Notes under the pieces: model-generated
What the model was told of the DNA's origin: nothing
Database searches by the model: none
The model's input: the letters and a program-made list of their open reading frames with translations, nothing else
Program-made: the position numbers and the translations under genes
NCBI RefSeq assembly: GCF_013315695.1
Contig: NZ_CP054353.1
Source of the DNA: Escherichia coli
GTDB taxonomy: Bacteria; Pseudomonadota; Gammaproteobacteria; Enterobacterales; Enterobacteriaceae
Strand: one strand, 5' to 3'
DNA length: 64,000 nt
Shown here: positions 4,378 through 17,557 of the stretch, piece by piece
Numbering within the stretch: the stretch's first letter is position 1
Layout of the letters: each line of letters starts with the position of its first letter

Positions 4378-4658
4378 GAGATTGTGGTGCTTTTTGTGGG
4401 AGTCATCCACTTACGCACTTTGTTTTGCCATGCCAGCAGTTAGCTTCTGCTGTAAAACTATTCATGCAGCAAACCTGCACTTCACCACAATGGTTAGCAT
4501 ACTTTTCCTGATTAAGATTTTGCCAAATATGCTAGCCATTGTTTCATGTATTGGACCTCCTTACTTTTTATTAAAGAGATCCAATATTCACTACTCTGTC
4601 CGTATCTCTACTCAGGCATCAGCCTTCTTCGTTATCGTATACAGACGAGCGATGAATT

Positions 4659-4874
4659 TTAATCAGTAATGATGACATTTGCTGCTGCAGGACCTTTAGC
4701 ACCACTCTCTATAGAGAAGGTAACCTTTTGACCTTCAAATAAGGTTCGATAATTATCATTCTGAATCGCAGAAAAATGCACAAACACATCTTTACTACCA
4801 TCAACAGGAGAAATAAAGCCGAAACCTTTATCAGCGTTAAACCATTTTACTAAACCAGTCATTTTATTTGACAT
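4659..4874 (-). CDS. cspB: Cold-shock protein CspB (CspA family)
   Basis: 71-aa [56 protein letters not shown]... Confidence 0.9.
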
Positions 4875-5174
4875 TCTACATTCCTTAACTTGAGCCTTTC
4901 GGCATAAATGGTTTGCATAACAGAAACGACTTCGTACTTAATTGGAGAGACTCAAAGAAGGAATAAGTGAATAACACCTGAAATGAGAACTGCTTTAGTA
5001 AACTACTTCGTATATCGTCTGTTCTTCAAACCGACGCAATCATTAACGCATAGTTGAACATATGAAGCAATGTTTATTTTAGACATCCAGCCATCTTCAA
5101 CCCCATCAAAAAACTATAGCTTTCTTCAGGAACGTGTGTATAGTGCGCCAAGTTATCAGTATTAAGGAATTTTT

Positions 5175-6574: not shown

Positions 6575-7663
6575 TTACGCCAGTACGCCAATTGCCAGCG
6601 CGCGATCGATAAAACGAAATATCAGCTCCAGTTGGGAGCCATACTTATCTTCAAATGCCACTGTATCCGTATGCAGCTCGTTGTGATGCTTTCTGCACAA
6701 AGGCAACACAAAGAGATCATGTGCTTTTGTTCCCATTCCGCCCTGCCCGTGACCAATCAGATGATGCGGATCGTCGGCTGGCATACCGCAGCAAGCACAC
6801 GGCTGTGTCTTAACCCAACGTGTGTATTTCTCCTTAACCCAGCGGCGACGTTTAGGCAGCTTCATGAAAGATTCCGGAGACTCTGGATCAACGGTGATGC
6901 TTACCACCGTCTTTTCCTGTGGTGATTTTTGTTGCTGGTGGGCGTAAGGCAACGGTGCAAGATTTTTTGTGCGTTGTTTCAATATGCTGGTGGCGGTCTG
7001 CTCTCCCGGTACGATGTCGCTTTCGCGGTACACCGAGCAGATTTTTTCCGCTGGTAATCCCAGCGAACGACGCGATACAGCCTCAGGTAGTGCATCCACC
7101 ACCTGATTGCAGACCGCCCACCAGGATAATTCAGCCAAAGATAATTCCCGCTCCTGCGTACCGCTTATTGCGTGACGGATGACGTCAATCACCCATGCTG
7201 TCAGATTTTGTTGAGCAAGCAGCTCCAGTGATTCCGATGTCTGGTCACGCAGTTGGTTGTCGCAGTGCCAGCACAACACCATTGCGCCGGTACCATAACG
7301 GTGAATGACTGTTTCAGTGTGATGGTAATCGCCATTAGGCCACTGGCAGGATGTAACATGACGTAATAGCCAGTCGGACAATGCGCCAACGCCGCCAGCA
7401 GCACGAATCACCCGTTCGTTACTAAAAAACGGCAGCAATGTTTTGTCTTCCGCCAGCGGCTGGCGAACGGCAGGAACGACTCCGGATGGCAGATTACGCA
7501 TGCTTTTTGGTTCCGGTTCCACCAGCACTCGAGGATTATGAAATATCTGTATGGATTCACGGCCCGGCTTAAGGACCACCAGCCCAAGCTCAGGCACCAG
7601 AACAGGTCTAAGTAATACCCGCACGTTACCTCCAGATCCGTTGCTGGAAAGTGCGGGACGCAC
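6575..7663 (-). CDS. ydfU: Prophage protein YdfU (DUF968-like, His/Cys-rich motif)
   Basis: 362-aa ORF containing ...CCGMPADDPHHLIGHGQGGMGTKAHDLFVLPLCRKHHNELH...; position before the Q-like gene. Confidence 0.6.
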   Translation of the reverse strand: MRPALSSNGSGGNVRVLLRPVLVPELGLVVLKPGRESIQIFHNPRVLVEPEPKSMRNLPSGVVPAVRQPLAEDKTLLPFFSNERVIRAAGGVGALSDWLLRHVTSCQWPNGDYHHTETVIHRYGTGAMVLCWHCDNQLRDQTSESLELLAQQNLTAWVIDVIRHAISGTQERELSLAELSWWAVCNQVVDALPEAVSRRSLGLPAEKICSVYRESDIVPGEQTATSILKQRTKNLAPLPYAHQQQKSPQEKTVVSITVDPESPESFMKLPKRRRWVKEKYTRWVKTQPCACCGMPADDPHHLIGHGQGGMGTKAHDLFVLPLCRKHHNELHTDTVAFEDKYGSQLELIFRFIDRALAIGVLA

Positions 7664-7904
7664 GTGGTGGGCGTTCGGAATAAGGCAGCCTGACAGAGAT
7701 TATCCAGTGCCGATAGTCGAGACTGAGAGCTTTCTTAACCTCGAACCCGCGCCTGCGGTAAGAATGAATCAGCCATTCGGCCTGTTCTGCAGTGCATGGA
7801 GGGTGCCGGAACCATTCAGACTTGAATGCGTGAGAATACCGCCCGTGCGTGCAGGCAAGAACGGGCGAATTATCAGAATTGTAATATTTTGCGTTGCGTG
7901 CCAT
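7626..7904 (-). CDS. Hypothetical prophage protein (92 aa), overlaps the ydfU start in another frame
   Basis: ORF MARNAKYYNSDNSPVLACTHGRYSHAFKSEWF...; no family recognised. Confidence 0.35.
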   Translation of the reverse strand: MARNAKYYNSDNSPVLACTHGRYSHAFKSEWFRHPPCTAEQAEWLIHSYRRRGFEVKKALSLDYRHWIISVRLPYSERPPRASRTFQQRIWR

Positions 7905-7970
7905 CGGTTTTCTCCGGTGGCACGGTGTTACTCAGCGGGAGTTCAGCCCCGCGCAAGATTGTAGATGAGT

Positions 7971-8222
7971 TTATTCTTCTGAAAAAGCAGAAAAGCCAGC
8001 TTTTATTCCGATCTCTTTCAATACCTGTAATGAAGTGACAAACTCACCGTCGCGCAAGATAAATCCGTCCGTCACTCGGGCATCCACAAAATTAATTAAC
8101 GCAGCCCCATTTTTTTGCAAACACACAATGCGGTAATGACTAACAATATTTCCATTTTCAACGCACACAGCATAGAGGCCATCTTCACAAAAAATTTTAC
8201 GCAGTTCTTCGATGTTCATCAT
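7971..8222 (-). CDS. rem: Hypothetical 83-aa prophage protein; possibly Rem
   Basis: 83-aa ORF located between ydfU and hokD; length and position match my recollection of rem; weak assignment. Confidence 0.4.
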   Translation of the reverse strand: MMNIEELRKIFCEDGLYAVCVENGNIVSHYRIVCLQKNGAALINFVDARVTDGFILRDGEFVTSLQVLKEIGIKAGFSAFSEE

Positions 8223-8340
8223 CAGAATCCTTCCGGATAATTAGCTCTCCCCTTTAAGGGACCATCCCTCTTATCCCTGCGCGCTACTTAAGTATTTTTG
8301 ATTCTATTCCGGCACCGTCCAGAACTTCAAATGCGTTGAA

Positions 8341-8370
8341 AATAAAAACAAAAACCCGCCGAAGCGGGTT
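8341..8370 (-). terminator. Rho-independent terminator of the relB-relE-hokD operon
   Basis: Hairpin aacccgc-cgaa-gcgggtt with a T-run on the minus strand, ~70 bp downstream of the hokD stop. Confidence 0.65.
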
Positions 8371-8438
8371 AAGTGCGGGTGCGTTGAGAATGCCTGCCAC
8401 ATCAGAGGTGGCGAGGGATTTCTCCCTCGCCGGGTCTC

Positions 8439-8594
8439 TTACTCCTCAGGTTCGTAAGCTGTGAAGACAGCGACCTCCGTCTGGCCGGTTCGGATTCGTA
8501 CCTCGCAGAGGTCTTTCCTCGTTACCAGTGCCGTCACTATGACGGTTAAACAGATGACGATCAGGGCGATTAACATCGCCTTTTGCTGCTTCAT
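8439..8594 (-). CDS. hokD: Hok-family type I toxin HokD/RelF (51 aa)
   Basis: Manual translation: MKQQK... at 8594 and ...EPEE-stop at 8439; 52 codons; below the ORF-track cutoff. Confidence 0.8.
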   Translation of the reverse strand: MKQQKAMLIALIVICLTVIVTALVTRKDLCEVRIRTGQTEVAVFTAYEPEE

Positions 8595-8665
8595 AGCCTG
8601 CTTCTCCTGTCAACGCAAAGCAGAAGTGTCACCTTCGGTGCGAAACAGAGATGTCATGCTTTGGT

Positions 8666-8953
8666 TCAGAGAATGCGTTTGACCGCCTCGCTATATACTT
8701 CCGAGCGTTCTCTTTTCCCAACAGAAATCACGAAAACGACAACTTTCTCGTCTATAACCTGGTATACAAGGCGATAGCCTGAAGACCGGAGCTTAATCTT
8801 GTAACAATCAGGCATACCACGGAGCTTGTTTGCTTCAATCCGGGGTGACTCAAGTACTTCAACCAGCTTCTTTTTCAACTGTTCACGTACCGTCGAGCCC
8901 AGCTTTCGCCATTCCTTTAGTGCCCGCTCGTCAAAATCCAGAAAATACGCCAT
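8666..8953 (-). CDS. relE: RelE mRNA interferase toxin
   Basis: 95-aa ORF MAYFLDFDERALKEWRKLGSTVREQLKKKL...; start overlaps the relB stop. Confidence 0.9.
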   Translation of the reverse strand: MAYFLDFDERALKEWRKLGSTVREQLKKKLVEVLESPRIEANKLRGMPDCYKIKLRSSGYRLVYQVIDEKVVVFVISVGKRERSEVYSEAVKRIL

Positions 8954-9192
8954 CAGAGTTCATCCAGCGTCACACGTACTGGCTTAGGATTACGAAGCCG
9001 TTCTTTCACTATCTCCACAAGTTCAGCATCTTCATCACTCAGGAGTGTCTGTTTGAACGGCAAGCGTTCATTGTCAGCGATATACTCGAGCATGAGACGA
9101 AGCGCTTCAGAAGGAGTTACACCCATTTTTTCAAGCGCGGCGTAAGAACGCGCTTTAAGTTCATCGTCAATACGCAGGTTAATGCTACCCAT
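8953..9192 (-). CDS. relB: RelB antitoxin
   Basis: 79-aa ORF MGSINLRIDDELKARSYAALEKMGVTPSEALRLML... (ribbon-helix-helix type). Confidence 0.9.
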   Translation of the reverse strand: MGSINLRIDDELKARSYAALEKMGVTPSEALRLMLEYIADNERLPFKQTLLSDEDAELVEIVKERLRNPKPVRVTLDEL

Positions 9193-9203
9193 GTCTTACA
9201 CCT

Positions 9204-9229
9204 CTTGTAATTACAAATGTCATTACAAG
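9204..9229 (-). promoter_or_regulatory. relBE operator region: two adjacent palindromes TTGTAATTACAA and TTGTAATGACAT just upstream of relB
   Basis: Inverted repeats read directly, 12 bp upstream of the relB start codon. Confidence 0.6.
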
Positions 9230-9522
9230 TATCGCACTACAACATGCTTAGGGCAAGTCACGAAGGAAGTCAGAAAGTAGTCGTAAGAACGGTGATCACT
9301 GTCCGCTTTGTGCCAGGAGCAGCCATTGCTAAGTCCATCCTGTATTGTGCAGGTCAGCTCGTTTTTAAAGAGTCCGGCCATCATCTTACTGGTACAGACA
9401 CCATATACTTTGTGACGGTCAGGCTACATATGCACAACTCAACTTATTCATCTATTTTTTGCTTTAGCATGTCAGTGTTGCTTTCTCGTCGGCGGGTGAG
9501 CGGTGACCTGACCTGTCGATAA
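9217..9522 (+). CDS. ydfV: Prophage protein YdfV (hypothetical)
   Basis: 101-aa ORF divergent from relB; positional assignment. Confidence 0.45.
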   Translation: MSLQVSHYNMLRASHEGSQKVVVRTVITVRFVPGAAIAKSILYCAGQLVFKESGHHLTGTDTIYFVTVRLHMHNSTYSSIFCFSMSVLLSRRRVSGDLTCR

Positions 9523-9674
9523 AGGAACGTAACACGTTTTATGCAACACCCGCATGCGGCAGAAAATTATTGCCGAACGTTTACCCCTGTCAACAAGCTT
9601 TACTTTCTGAGGCGCGCCAGCCCGCGAGGAAAACAATCTGAACATCAAACAATTAATGACACAAGAAATACGAT

Positions 9675-9701
9675 TAAAGATTTTTTTGTGCATGCCGATA
9701 G
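9675..9701 (+). promoter_or_regulatory. Sigma-28 (FliA) type promoter: TAAAGATT-N11-GCCGATAG upstream of flxA
   Basis: Match to the class 3 flagellar promoter consensus TAAAGTTT-N11-GCCGATAA read directly; ~25 bp upstream of the flxA start. Confidence 0.6.
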
Positions 9702-9724
9702 TGCTTTTTTAAAAGGAGAAATCT

Positions 9725-10057
9725 ATGTCTGTCACAATTCAGGGAAATACCTCAACCGTTATTTCAAACAACTCCGCCCCGGAAGGAACATCAGAAATAG
9801 CCAAAATCACAAGACAAATTCAGGTGCTGACTGAAAAGCTTGGGAAAATCTCATCGGAAGAGGGGATGACGACACAGCAGAAAAAAGAAATGGCTGCATT
9901 GGTACAGAAGCAAATTGAAAGCCTCTGGGCTCAACTGGAGCAGTTGTTAAGGCAGCAGGCAGAGAAAAAGAATGAAGACGCGACAGTTCAGCCTGATAAA
10001 AAAGAAGAGAAAAAAGACGATACAAATACCGCTGGCACCATTGATATTTACGTCTAA
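9725..10057 (+). CDS. flxA: FlxA (FliA-regulated protein)
   Basis: 110-aa ORF MSVTIQGNTSTVISNNSAPEG... with a coiled-coil-like middle and Lys/Glu-rich tail. Confidence 0.8.
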   Translation: MSVTIQGNTSTVISNNSAPEGTSEIAKITRQIQVLTEKLGKISSEEGMTTQQKKEMAALVQKQIESLWAQLEQLLRQQAEKKNEDATVQPDKKEEKKDDTNTAGTIDIYV

Positions 10058-10429
10058 GTGACAGCCGTATTGTGGCCCTCATCGGGCCACTTTTCGCCAT
10101 CAGCCTTTTCTTTAAAGACATATTATCTTTGTATCATTTCTGATAGTTAACATTACAAGATATAAGTAATGGACGCACTCCCAATTAGTCTATTTAAATC
10201 GCCACGAGTTTAACTGACAACCCATGATCAATTATGAATTGCAACTATTTCTGTAGTCACTTTTGTGGGGACAGTCCACAAAACTGCCAACTTCCGCTTC
10301 TTGCTCTTAGCGGACATTAGCATAGGCTATTTACCATAACGCCTCATTACGCGCACCGCCCAGACTGACTCAGCGCGTTTCTGGCATATCCCCGGTAAAA
10401 CAAGTAACAAACCACCCGAAAATGAACAC

Positions 10430-11900
10430 CAGAAACGCGACTTAAGAATCTACCCTATGAATGGATATGCACTCAACCGAATCGATCTTGGTTTCAATCT
10501 TTTTTATCGGGATCAGGCTTCTTTTTAGGTAACTTCGGGGGCTTAACTTGCTGATGACTTTGCGTTCGGCGCGTAAGCCAGGGATGGTCAGCTTTAGGTT
10601 TAACATAGTATTTTGAGCGTAAATCAATACGGGCATTATCCACTCGTTCATGGACACTCTTTTCATCATCCAGTGGTATAGGCTCCGGGCCATCAACATA
10701 CTTTTCCCAGCCCAGCGCTTTCCCGTCATACAGAACGTTAATTTCACCGTCAAAGTTCTCGCATACAGTAACAACCGAATGCCTAAGTCGATATCCCCGG
10801 CCCTCACTGCGTACCTGAAACGCACTGCTTTTGTACTGGAAAGTGAGATTTTTAGACAGAACGCGCTTCGCCTGTAGGCTGAAGATATAACCCAGTTCCT
10901 CTTCAGAATGGTGCACATCAAGATGAGCATTATCAGTAGTACGAGGCGACGTAGCGAACCGGTTGTTATAGGCTTCAATAAAGGTCGGCAACCATGCATT
11001 TGCTGTTTCAATATCACTGATATTCTGAAGCCGCATTTCTTTGACCAGCCTGTCCTGTAGTGTCTGATTGGCGCGCTCTACCCGCCCTTTTGCCTGCGGG
11101 CTGTTGGCATGGATTGGCTCGATGCCCAGTGTCTTTATCGCACGAGTGAACTGGGTCAGCTCACCTTCCCGCTCTGGGTTATTTACCCTGAATATACTGT
11201 GTCTATCAGAGTAGAGAGCGAGCGGTACGCCATGATCATTAAGGTAACCCCGGAGGGTTTCCATGTAAGCCCGGGTTGTTTCAGCAGGCACAAAACGCAA
11301 CGCCATCAACGCACTGGTGGCATCATCAATGAAAACGATCAGTGTACATCTGGGGCCTCGATTTTCAAACCAGTCATGAGGTGAGCCATCAATCTGGATC
11401 AGTTCACCGTAAGATGGTCGTCGCATGCGGCGTTGATATATACGGGCAATTTTACGACGGCGTTCACGCCATAACCCCTCTTCTATCATCCACTTTCTGA
11501 GAGTTTCAACGGATAAAGATAAACCGTGTATCTCGCGCAATTTTTCGCACGCAAACGTAGGTCCAAAATCAGCGTAACGGCCTTTGAGGAGTGAAATTAC
11601 TGTTGCTCTGAATTCAGTAGAAAAGGAATTATTAGGACGCTTTCCACGTCGGTGGGAAACCAGAGCAGAAGGCCCTTCATTTCTATACCGTTGCACCAGA
11701 CGTTTAACCTGCCGAATAGAAATGCCAATGCGTGCCGCAGCTTGTTCCTGAATAATCTGAAGTCGGTGGAGTTCCTTATGACTCATCGTAACAGTCTCTT
11801 TGATCATGAAAAATCCCCCAGAGAATTGTCTGGGGACATTTTAGAATGGTTCAAAGGGGACATTACAGCTTGGTGTTAACAATAGCCTGCTTCTCCGTGC
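10430..11900 (-). mobile_element. Probable insertion sequence carrying a single DDE (rve-type) transposase; boundaries approximate
   Basis: Single 437-aa transposase ORF flanked by non-coding DNA with GGGGACA-type repeats and a candidate imperfect terminal repeat (AGGCTATT... at ~10330 and ~11885); ends not resolved. Confidence 0.4.
10494..11807 (-). CDS. DDE transposase, integrase-core (rve) type with N-terminal HTH (IS481/ISNCY-like)
   Basis: 437-aa ORF with N-terminal HTH (AARIGISIRQVKRLVQRY) and core ...IDGSPHDWF...FIDDATS...YSDRHSIF...SPQAKGRVERANQTLQDRL... Confidence 0.6.
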   Translation of the reverse strand: MIKETVTMSHKELHRLQIIQEQAAARIGISIRQVKRLVQRYRNEGPSALVSHRRGKRPNNSFSTEFRATVISLLKGRYADFGPTFACEKLREIHGLSLSVETLRKWMIEEGLWRERRRKIARIYQRRMRRPSYGELIQIDGSPHDWFENRGPRCTLIVFIDDATSALMALRFVPAETTRAYMETLRGYLNDHGVPLALYSDRHSIFRVNNPEREGELTQFTRAIKTLGIEPIHANSPQAKGRVERANQTLQDRLVKEMRLQNISDIETANAWLPTFIEAYNNRFATSPRTTDNAHLDVHHSEEELGYIFSLQAKRVLSKNLTFQYKSSAFQVRSEGRGYRLRHSVVTVCENFDGEINVLYDGKALGWEKYVDGPEPIPLDDEKSVHERVDNARIDLRSKYYVKPKADHPWLTRRTQSHQQVKPPKLPKKKPDPDKKD

Positions 11901-12141
11901 CTTTCGGCACGTAAGAGGCTAACCTACATGTGTCTAGCATGAAATTGGCCTCAGATTAATGTTAAGCGTCTTGCAGGACGCGTAATGTTAACTGGGGCTT
12001 TTCTCTATCTGCCGTTGGTGTCCATGCCCGAGGCAGATAGCCTCAAGCACCCGCAGTCATTCTACTTAACTAAGATTTCCCCGCAAACCGTTTTTGTCCA
12101 GCACAGTAAATATCCAACTAAACCAATGGAGTTCGCTGTAT

Positions 12142-17502: not shown

Positions 17503-17557
17503 TTTCTGGTGACGTTTGGCGGTATCAGTTTTACTCCGTGACTGCTCTGCCGCCCTT
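17503..17557 (+). ncRNA. dicF: DicF small regulatory RNA (anti-ftsZ)
   Basis: Sequence TTTCTGGTGACGTTTGGCGGTATCAGTTTTACTCCGTGACTGCTCTGCCGCCC followed by TTTTT matches DicF as I remember it; directly upstream of dicB. Confidence 0.8.

Follow-up and report, generated by a model that had tools for sequence, protein, structure and literature searches.

A transposon insertion into a hokD/sok locus as the probable origin of the relBEF operon in an Escherichia coli prophage

We analyzed a 64,000-nt stretch of the Escherichia coli contig NZ_CP054353.1 (RefSeq assembly GCF_013315695.1; hereafter, the window) that encompasses, at positions 8341-9229, the relBEF operon, in which the genes for the type II toxin-antitoxin pair RelB/RelE are followed by hokD (relF), a Hok-family toxin gene. 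By sequence comparison, this region is the already known relBEF operon of the Qin-type prophage of E. coli, which is among the best-studied toxin-antitoxin loci, and the operon itself is ordinary and identical to the reference. The window, however, keeps evidence of the origin of the operon that E. coli K-12 has lost. This evidence indicates, with a probability of about 0.85, that relBEF arose when a 3274-bp transposon of the IS1202 family inserted into the start codon of hokD within a prophage hokD/sok locus. The adjacency of relB, relE and hokD apparently results from this insertion and does not reflect an ancestral three-gene unit, which would explain a 25-year-old oddity, namely, hokD located behind relBE without Sok/Mok control. 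More tentatively, at slightly less than even odds, we propose that relBE belongs to the cargo of a hitherto undescribed IS1202-family transposon, specific in both site and orientation, whose targets are the start codons of hok-family genes (AT|G, 15-bp duplication). Insertion of such an element would disarm the resident type I system, install a type II system, re-wire hok behind the relBE promoter (PrelBE) and put the transposase gene under the hok promoter and the Sok-controlled leader; relBEF and the 'rearranged' hokD would be by-products of this process, and the 707-bp relBE cassette found on plasmids would be a derivative of the element.

Evidence for a transposon insertion into the hokD start codon

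Scanning the whole window with Rfam models identified an orphan 5' half of a hokD/sok locus, including the hok leader, tac and the sok region (11881-12052, minus strand; RF01794, 104.1 bits against a gathering cutoff of 59). This half locus, in which tac (12041-12052) matches perfectly, is missing from K-12. The leader runs to the 15-mer GGAGAAGCAGGCTAT and is then cut at 11881, the position of the start codon, by TGTTAACACC. The same 15-mer occurs, as a perfect direct repeat on the same strand, immediately ahead of hokD: the left copy of this apparent target-site duplication occupies 11882-11896, and the right copy (8593-8607) supplies the Shine-Dalgarno (SD) sequence of hokD (GGAG) together with the A and the T of its ATG. 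The point of insertion lies between AT and G of the start codon.

Between the two 15-mers lies a 3274-bp segment, from 11881 to 8608, with TGT...ACA ends. Its left inverted repeat (IRL; TGTTAACACCAAGCTGTAATGTCCCC, 11856-11881, minus strand) starts with TGT and is accompanied by a subterminal repeat of its inner part from 11857; the right inverted repeat (IRR; GGTGACACTTCTGCTTTGCGTTGACA, 8608-8633, minus strand) ends in ACA, is identical to the reverse complement of IRL at 19 of the 26 positions, and marks the end of homology in every context examined. When the segment and one copy of the repeat were removed in silico, the remaining sequence could be aligned across the junction, in a single 2080-nt high-scoring segment pair with 92.5% identity, to an uninterrupted E. 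coli S8 prophage (L008; L numbers denote comparison loci) that carries a complete hokD/sok locus and encodes an identical HokD protein. This empty site was found from the hok side; the flxA-ydfV flank was unusable as it always co-occurs with relBE, because the flank itself is cargo.

Two further loci show the same organization. In the hok gene of an Enterobacter IncF plasmid (L013), the element is flanked on both sides by GGAGAAGAAGGCCAT, a 15-mer that is present once in an uninterrupted copy of this hok allele, and in pndA of a Salmonella IncI1 plasmid (L015), the element is flanked by TGGAGGGGCTATGAT. The plasmid copies of the element are 98.3-98.4% identical to that of the window. At all three loci, the orientation is the same, the end of the duplication falls within the start codon of the toxin gene (AT|G), IRL is abutted by an intact sok/leader match, and a conserved hairpin motif, GCCGNAAGGCA, directly precedes the duplication. 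The 15-mers are different and each matches the local allele, which argues for transposition. Homologous recombination or duplication between two hok loci, with the insertion sequence (IS) being an unrelated neighbor, could also produce 15-bp repeats and a split locus; such an explanation would be in line with the report that ISEsa1 generates no target duplication (PMC10132070) and with the existence of several relBE cassettes that lack duplications and have rearranged flanks, in one case, in an inverted arrangement (see below). Nevertheless, we consider recombination very unlikely. Three loci carry three 15-mers that match their own hok alleles on both sides, the boundaries always coincide exactly with the TGT/ACA ends and with AT|G in a single orientation, and in silico excision restores colinearity with the uninterrupted prophage. 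Moreover, with only 50-60% identity in the coding sequence, the flanking hok alleles are too divergent for transfer of the element by recombination to be likely.

The K-12 genome diverges from the window at 10679, and K-12 has lost everything to the left of this point: the greater part of the transposase gene, IRL, the left copy of the duplication and the leader that bears sok; therefore, the structure of the transposon is not visible in the reference genome. The ydfW gene is the C-terminal remnant of the transposase (window 10494-10678; L001 5295-5444).

The element and the IS1202 family

Apart from the terminal repeats, the element contains a transposase gene (10494-11807, minus strand; 437 aa), flxA (9725-10057, plus strand; Pfam FlxA, 2e-14), the ydfV open reading frame (ORF), PrelBE with the operator relO, relB, relE, and a 57-nt tail after the relE stop codon (8608-8665, minus strand) that ends in IRR and is 97-100% conserved together with relBE on plasmids. 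The flxA gene lies inside the element in the window and in both plasmid loci (L013 and L015) and apparently is transposon cargo. The transposase belongs to the IS1202 family and is ISEsa1-like: it matches the ISNCY model NF033594 with 455.7 bits (cutoff 250) and is 98% identical to proteins annotated as members of the ISEsa1 family, with other records reading 'IS1202-like element ISEsa1 family'. Compared to the plasmid copies, the transposase of the window lacks, in frame, 9 residues of the N-terminal region (SINRHITQE, 11744-11770), with 98% identity in the rest of the protein; in a near-identical strain (L002), this gene is marked as a pseudogene by RefSeq.

Several features that characterize the IS1202 family are found in this element, namely, an ISNCY-type DDE transposase, imperfect inverted repeats that start with TGT and contain a conserved inner block, and a target duplication of fixed length. 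In this family, the inverted repeats start with TGT, and one subgroup (ISTde1) makes 15-17-bp duplications (PMC10132070). With ISEsa1 and the ISTde1 and ISAjo2/ISAba32 subgroups, the element shares the DDE transposase, the TGT...ACA ends, imperfect repeats of about 26 bp with a subterminal repeat, a long target duplication (15 bp in this case), and orientation-specific insertion by a conserved site. It differs from members of the family in its size, 3.3 kb rather than 1.3-2.0 kb, in carrying flxA and a complete relBE as cargo, and in its target, the translation-initiation region of hok-family genes, whereas the ISAjo2/ISAba32 subgroup targets dif-like (Xer) sites.

hokD lacks type I control in cis

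The HokD protein (WP_000813254.1) is the same as that encoded in uninterrupted hokD/sok prophage loci. As in hok/sok loci, the gene keeps its SD, ORF, hairpin in the 3' untranslated region (UTR), fbi element and terminator. In contrast to those loci, the control elements are located 3.3 kb away, across the transposon, and transcription would come from PrelBE instead. In both BLAST searches and alignments, homology to complete hok/sok loci starts at 8608, 14 nt upstream of the hokD ATG. No match to RF01794, the model of the hok leader containing the sok region, was detected at E<1 within 7000-11000; the controls scored 104-128 bits overall (122 for hokC, 115 for a hokD-like locus of a phage-plasmid, 107 for two uninterrupted prophage hokD loci). 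In cis, hokD has no hok promoter, tac, ucb, mok start, Sok target or sok gene. A TGA located 5 codons ahead of the hokD ATG closes the mok-type upstream frame, which contains no upstream start codon; the tac sequence (GGGTGCTTGAGG) is absent from the relBEF transcript, the sole perfect tac being the one in the orphan leader, beyond the transposon; and the fbi-like element (CTCAACGCACCC, 8377-8388, minus strand), aligned with those of complete loci, is orphaned. By all appearances, hokD is a Hok-family toxin gene that does not form a type I toxin-antitoxin system at this locus. The preliminary description of the region, made from the letters alone, had a type II pair co-transcribed with a type I Hok toxin; the RelB/RelE pair and the Hok-family gene stand, but the type I designation does not, given the lack of control elements in cis, and the Sok-like antisense RNA, the promoter of which it suggested looking for opposite the hokD leader, was not found there with RF01794.

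A generic sigma-70 scan for an antisense promoter was blank opposite hokD, but it also missed PrelBE and the hok/sok promoters of complete loci; therefore, this negative result is uninformative, and we relied on homology instead.

The notion that hokD still is a complete type I system, with a Sok-like antisense RNA opposite its leader, is hardly credible. The window does contain a sok-bearing leader, but it lies across the transposon and has only the 15-nt duplication in common with the relBEF-hokD transcript, no sok or leader match was obtained in the region searched around hokD, and the hokD SD is preceded by 57 nt that belong to the transposon and are conserved on plasmids in front of unrelated DNA. 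Furthermore, opposite GGTCAAGGAG, intact relatives read TTGACC, whereas the window reads TGTCAA; we take TTGACC to be the sok -35 box, in line with the coordinates of sokC in K-12, although sokC is missing from the RefSeq annotation of hokC loci.

Another conceivable mode of control involves the 8-nt UGCGUUGA (8610-8617), which might act as a substitute tac by pairing with the fbi sequence UCAACGCA (8380-8387), such that fold-back would limit hokD translation until 3' processing. The two sequences form a perfect 8-bp complement, only 19 of 5000 intergenic shuffles match the fbi 12-mer as well, and the pairing is part of the minimum-free-energy structure of a 320-nt hokD segment (z = -3.1). However, the pair probability, only about 0.3 within the 320-nt segment, drops to 0.0 when the full-length mRNA is folded, removal of fbi does not open the SD in silico, and against the whole 3'UTR, 285 of 5000 shuffles do as well. 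The 8-mer is also part of IRR and does not change where IRR precedes hok alleles with different fbi elements. Such a function is improbable, and the predicted pairing is probably a coincidence.

In K-12, hokD has been treated as inactivated by a 'genetic rearrangement', with reference to Pedersen & Gerdes 1999 (PMC12214031, PMC7232551). The Tyr47 codon of hokD (TAC, 8454-8456, minus strand) is followed by G and so yields a TACG motif; in K-12, this site has been reported as A-to-I edited to Cys in about 6% of the transcripts (PMC12214031). The output of HokD would depend on the activity of PrelBE and on the mRNA structure, and is probably low, given the lack of a mok-type upstream ORF for translational coupling and the low level of Tyr47-to-Cys editing.

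Where hokD-type loci are uninterrupted, the hok ATG is overlapped (ATGA) by the TGA stop codon of a short upstream ORF (MRHIEISLLRTERSRRSRL; L008 2959-3018; window 8591-8653). This arrangement suggests that the mok-equivalent of the hokD-type subfamily is a coupled leader peptide, unlike the in-frame extension at hokC; in the window, the start of this ORF has been lost.

Distribution of relBEF and the relBE cassette

We searched 5,426 complete E. coli genomes (megablast of 8200-9400) and 72,556 plasmids. The full 8200-9400 stretch, containing relBEF, is present in about 1,161 of these genomes, and about 785 of all genomes still have the IS and the orphan leader; the uninterrupted locus, recognized as hokD and rem without relE, was found in about 1,086 genomes. 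Within the element, an internal IRL-like end (TGGCACAAAGCGGACAGTGATCACC, 9289-9315, minus strand) forms the left boundary of a relBE cassette of 707/708 bp (from about 9315 to 8608). The full cassette is present, at 99% identity or higher, in 680 of the 72,556 plasmids, with hosts including Klebsiella, Enterobacter, Citrobacter, Salmonella and others, and in about 1,160 of the 5,426 complete E. coli genomes. The plasmid cassettes vary in their flanks, with at least 5 different ones on the left and several on the right, and are frequently followed by other hok alleles. Among the cassette loci that we compared (L004, L006, L007, L010, L011, L016, L020 and L021), no target duplications were found around the 707-bp cassette in L004, L007, L010, L011, L016 and L021. 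We tentatively read these cassettes as deletion or recombination derivatives of the longer element. In L021, the IRR of the cassette abuts the reverse complement of the duplication and the hok leader, in an inverted arrangement. A 13-nt inverted repeat that straddles the cassette ends (8600-8612/9311-9323, 85% complementary) was dismissed, being one of eight similar pairs within 766 nt, that is, at the chance level.

In the Klebsiella pneumoniae plasmid pLH99-d-A (L006 1574-2680), a second insert of about 1.09 kb, with no ORF, TGT...ACA ends and inverted repeats, is flanked by the 5-bp repeat GGAGA and is located exactly in the hok SD behind the relBE IRR. This insert may be another IS1202-like element in the same region.

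The recurrence of relBE in front of hok genes could mean that relB-relE-hok is a selected three-gene module in which Hok is a second, membrane-acting effector that is controlled by RelB/RelE and kept because it is useful. The identical relBE cassette precedes intact hok ORFs of at least 5 alleles (hokD, two IncF/IncHI1B types, an IncHI2 type and pndA), the duplication keeps the SD and the ATG every time, and the insert in pLH99-d-A lies exactly in the hok SD, as if expression were selected against. In addition, HokD is toxic on overexpression (bioRxiv 10.1101/2025.08.07.668861), and the relF part is the commonest mRNA fragment after toxin induction in K-12 (PMC3598666). However, the target specificity of the transposon accounts for the recurrent association without selection, the hok ORFs hardly differ from their counterparts in free-standing hok/sok loci, such that their intactness may simply reflect recent insertion, and cassettes without hok behind them exist (L007 and L016). 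The treatment of K-12 hokD as inactivated by rearrangement, mentioned above, also speaks against the module. We regard selection for a three-gene unit as unlikely.

The relBEF operon and its transcription

All three genes of the operon are encoded on the minus strand. RelB (8953-9192; 79 aa) is a ribbon-helix-helix antitoxin and repressor, with the SD GAGG at 9201-9204; RelE (8666-8953; 95 aa) is a ribosome-dependent mRNA interferase, the start of which overlaps the relB stop by 1 nt (TGATG), as expected from the translational coupling in RelBE systems; and HokD (8439-8594; 51 aa) is a Hok/Gef membrane toxin. The assignments are backed by Pfam matches (RelB, PF04221, 1e-32; ParE_toxin/RelE, PF05016, 2e-13; HOK_GEF, PF01848, 1e-23) and by the NCBIfam models for the RelB equivalog (NF008412; 133 bits, cutoff 96) and RelE_StbE (TIGR02385; 54.7 bits, cutoff 27.9). 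RelE is 100% identical to chain y of PDB 4V7K as well as to the RelE of 4FXE, and RelB is 100% identical to chain A of 4FXE. The RefSeq protein identifiers are those of K-12 (WP_000534858.1, WP_000323025.1 and, for HokD, the one given above).

In a base-by-base comparison with K-12 MG1655, 8439-9229 is identical, with 100% identity of relB, relE and hokD at the DNA level, and the only differences within 8341-9229 are at 8389 (A vs G in K-12) and 8427 (T vs C in K-12), both in the hokD 3'UTR. This alignment revealed no frameshifts or premature stops in relB, relE or hokD, and the three open frames bear out the earlier statement that all three genes are intact. The identity with the Qin relBEF of K-12 extends to the promoter, relO, intergenic regions and terminator, and the flanking rem, ydfV and flxA are the same as well, so that the preliminary picture of a K-12-type locus, with a RelB/RelE pair, an operator, a downstream Hok-family gene and a terminator, is supported.

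The promoter consists of a -35 box, TTGCCC (9251-9256, minus strand), and a -10 box, GATACT (9228-9233, minus strand), in the only exact TTGCCC-N17-GATACT match (9228-9256); with 8 of 12 positions matching the consensus, PrelBE falls below the threshold of the generic sigma-70 promoter scan. The last T of the -10 box is the first base of the 24-bp operator relO (TTGTAATGACATTTGTAATTACAA, 9205-9228, minus strand), which has a single match within the 64-kb window (0 of 100 shuffles matched). The operator comprises the pseudo-palindromic TTGTAATGACAT (9217-9228), directly followed by the perfect palindrome TTGTAATTACAA (9205-9216), that is, two abutting 12-bp half-sites without a spacer that together hold four hexads [A/T]TGT[A/C]A. 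These half-sites are exactly those published for relO, which has been defined by scanning mutagenesis and hydroxyl-radical footprinting, with a pseudo-palindromic left and a perfect right half-site (PMC2812701); the arrangement of relO and the -10 box has also been described for K-12 (PMC3507626). Thus, of the two 12-bp palindromes noted previously upstream of relB, both are present, but TTGTAATGACAT is only a pseudo-palindrome, and the coordinates were off by 1 nt; similarly, the span 8341-9229 holds all the features that had been described, but its end at 9229 lies inside the -10 box and cuts off the promoter.

The operon ends in an intrinsic terminator with a 7-bp stem (5 G-C) and a UUCG loop (AACCCGC-UUCG-GCGGGUU, 8353-8370, minus strand, with a T-run to about 8341), which is the sole terminator-like site in 8200-9500; none was found between relE and hokD. 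An identical terminator follows the uninterrupted locus L008, so the clean terminator noted earlier downstream of hokD is present, but it is the native hok terminator, with its 3'UTR, rather than a terminator of relBE. The 3'UTR also contains a 9-bp hairpin with a GAAA loop (8410-8431, minus strand), in which the T at 8427 gives an A-U pair vs the G.U pair in K-12, and the fold of 8349-8441, including the terminator, has a predicted energy of -39.8 kcal/mol (z = -3.97). Weak Rfam matches to isrK (26.6 bits, gathering 50) and rsmX at 8349-8435 reflect the two 3'UTR hairpins and were rejected as family matches.

In K-12, northern blots with relB, relE and relF probes detected one transcript of the same size that was lost upon deletion of PrelBE (PMC3598666), and by analogy, relB, relE and hokD are expected to be co-transcribed in the strain analyzed here. 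Following the scheme established for K-12, the sigma-70 promoter would drive a single relB-relE-hokD mRNA ending at the hokD terminator, on which hokD would ride with its own SD. RelB dimers would bind the four relO hexads, relO overlapping the -10 box and the transcription start, with RelE acting as a co-repressor under RelB excess and freeing the complex from relO when RelE itself is in excess. Such conditional cooperativity and Lon-dependent activation come from K-12 studies of the identical sequence (PMC2812701, PMC3507626).

A scenario for the origin of relBEF

We propose the following scenario. The transposon would have inserted between AT and G of the prophage hokD start codon, in a fixed orientation, with duplication of 15 bp. 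With the right copy of the duplication, hokD would regain its SD and ATG immediately behind relE; given that there is no terminator in the transposon tail (8608-8665), transcription can leave the element, and read-through from PrelBE would then yield an mRNA that covers relB, relE and hok and stops at the hok terminator. The left copy would stay with the orphan hok promoter, leader and sok (11881-12052), now pointing into the transposase gene, and any Sok RNA produced from this leader would have no target in the relBEF mRNA. At hokA, hokC and hokE of K-12, an element (IS150/IS186) likewise lies beside the toxin frame and cuts off the regulatory leader (PMC12214031, PMC7232551). Unlike these cases, the element at hokD brings an outward promoter, and the duplication rebuilds the ribosome-binding site, so that hokD would be re-wired and not merely silenced.

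Several observations weigh against this scenario. The published description of ISEsa1, with a length of 1609 bp, no detectable target duplication and no known target (PMC10132070), differs from the element considered here, and the 3.3-kb unit therefore does not correspond to the ISfinder element in its described form. We could not delimit the IS alone by a proximal right end; the sequence of one plasmid copy (L014) departs from that of the window near 10289. The 707-bp cassettes, with their many left flanks and no duplications, are not accounted for by simple transposition of the long element. The copy of the element in the window may be immobile because of the 9-aa deletion in the transposase. 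In K-12, the left half of the element is deleted, and the co-transcription data come from that context. Finally, the predicted unpaired probability of the hokD SD is only 0.26-0.43.

No literature linking ISEsa1 or the IS1202 family to hok or relBE, and no published account of the origin of relBEF as a transposon junction, was found, although both findings are provisional because the literature searched was incomplete. For a subgroup of the IS1202 family whose published description had neither, the proposed insertion suggests both a target and a duplication length. If the scenario is correct, a mobile element uses the addiction module of another element as a landing site and replaces it with its own, which would bear on the spread of toxin-antitoxin genes among plasmids and prophages. 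It also affects the interpretation of 'relBEF' phenotypes in K-12, because there the element is truncated.

Neighboring genes and minor features

The rem and ydfV genes are annotated beside relB, relE and hokD in E. coli genomes that match 8200-9400. The ydfV ORF (9217-9522, plus strand) lies opposite relO and the relBE promoter, both of which it overlaps, extends across the internal IRL-like boundary and has no Pfam-supported identity; it probably does not represent a genuine gene. The promoter scan yielded a single promoter-like site (TTGAAG-N18-TAGAAT, 8301-8330, minus strand), just 3' of the hokD terminator and before rem. Elsewhere in the window, matches at the Rfam gathering level correspond to two cspA-type thermoregulator leaders (1749-2134 and 4643-5035, both on the minus strand) and to the DicF RNA (17504-17555, plus strand), which are consistent with a Qin-type prophage context.

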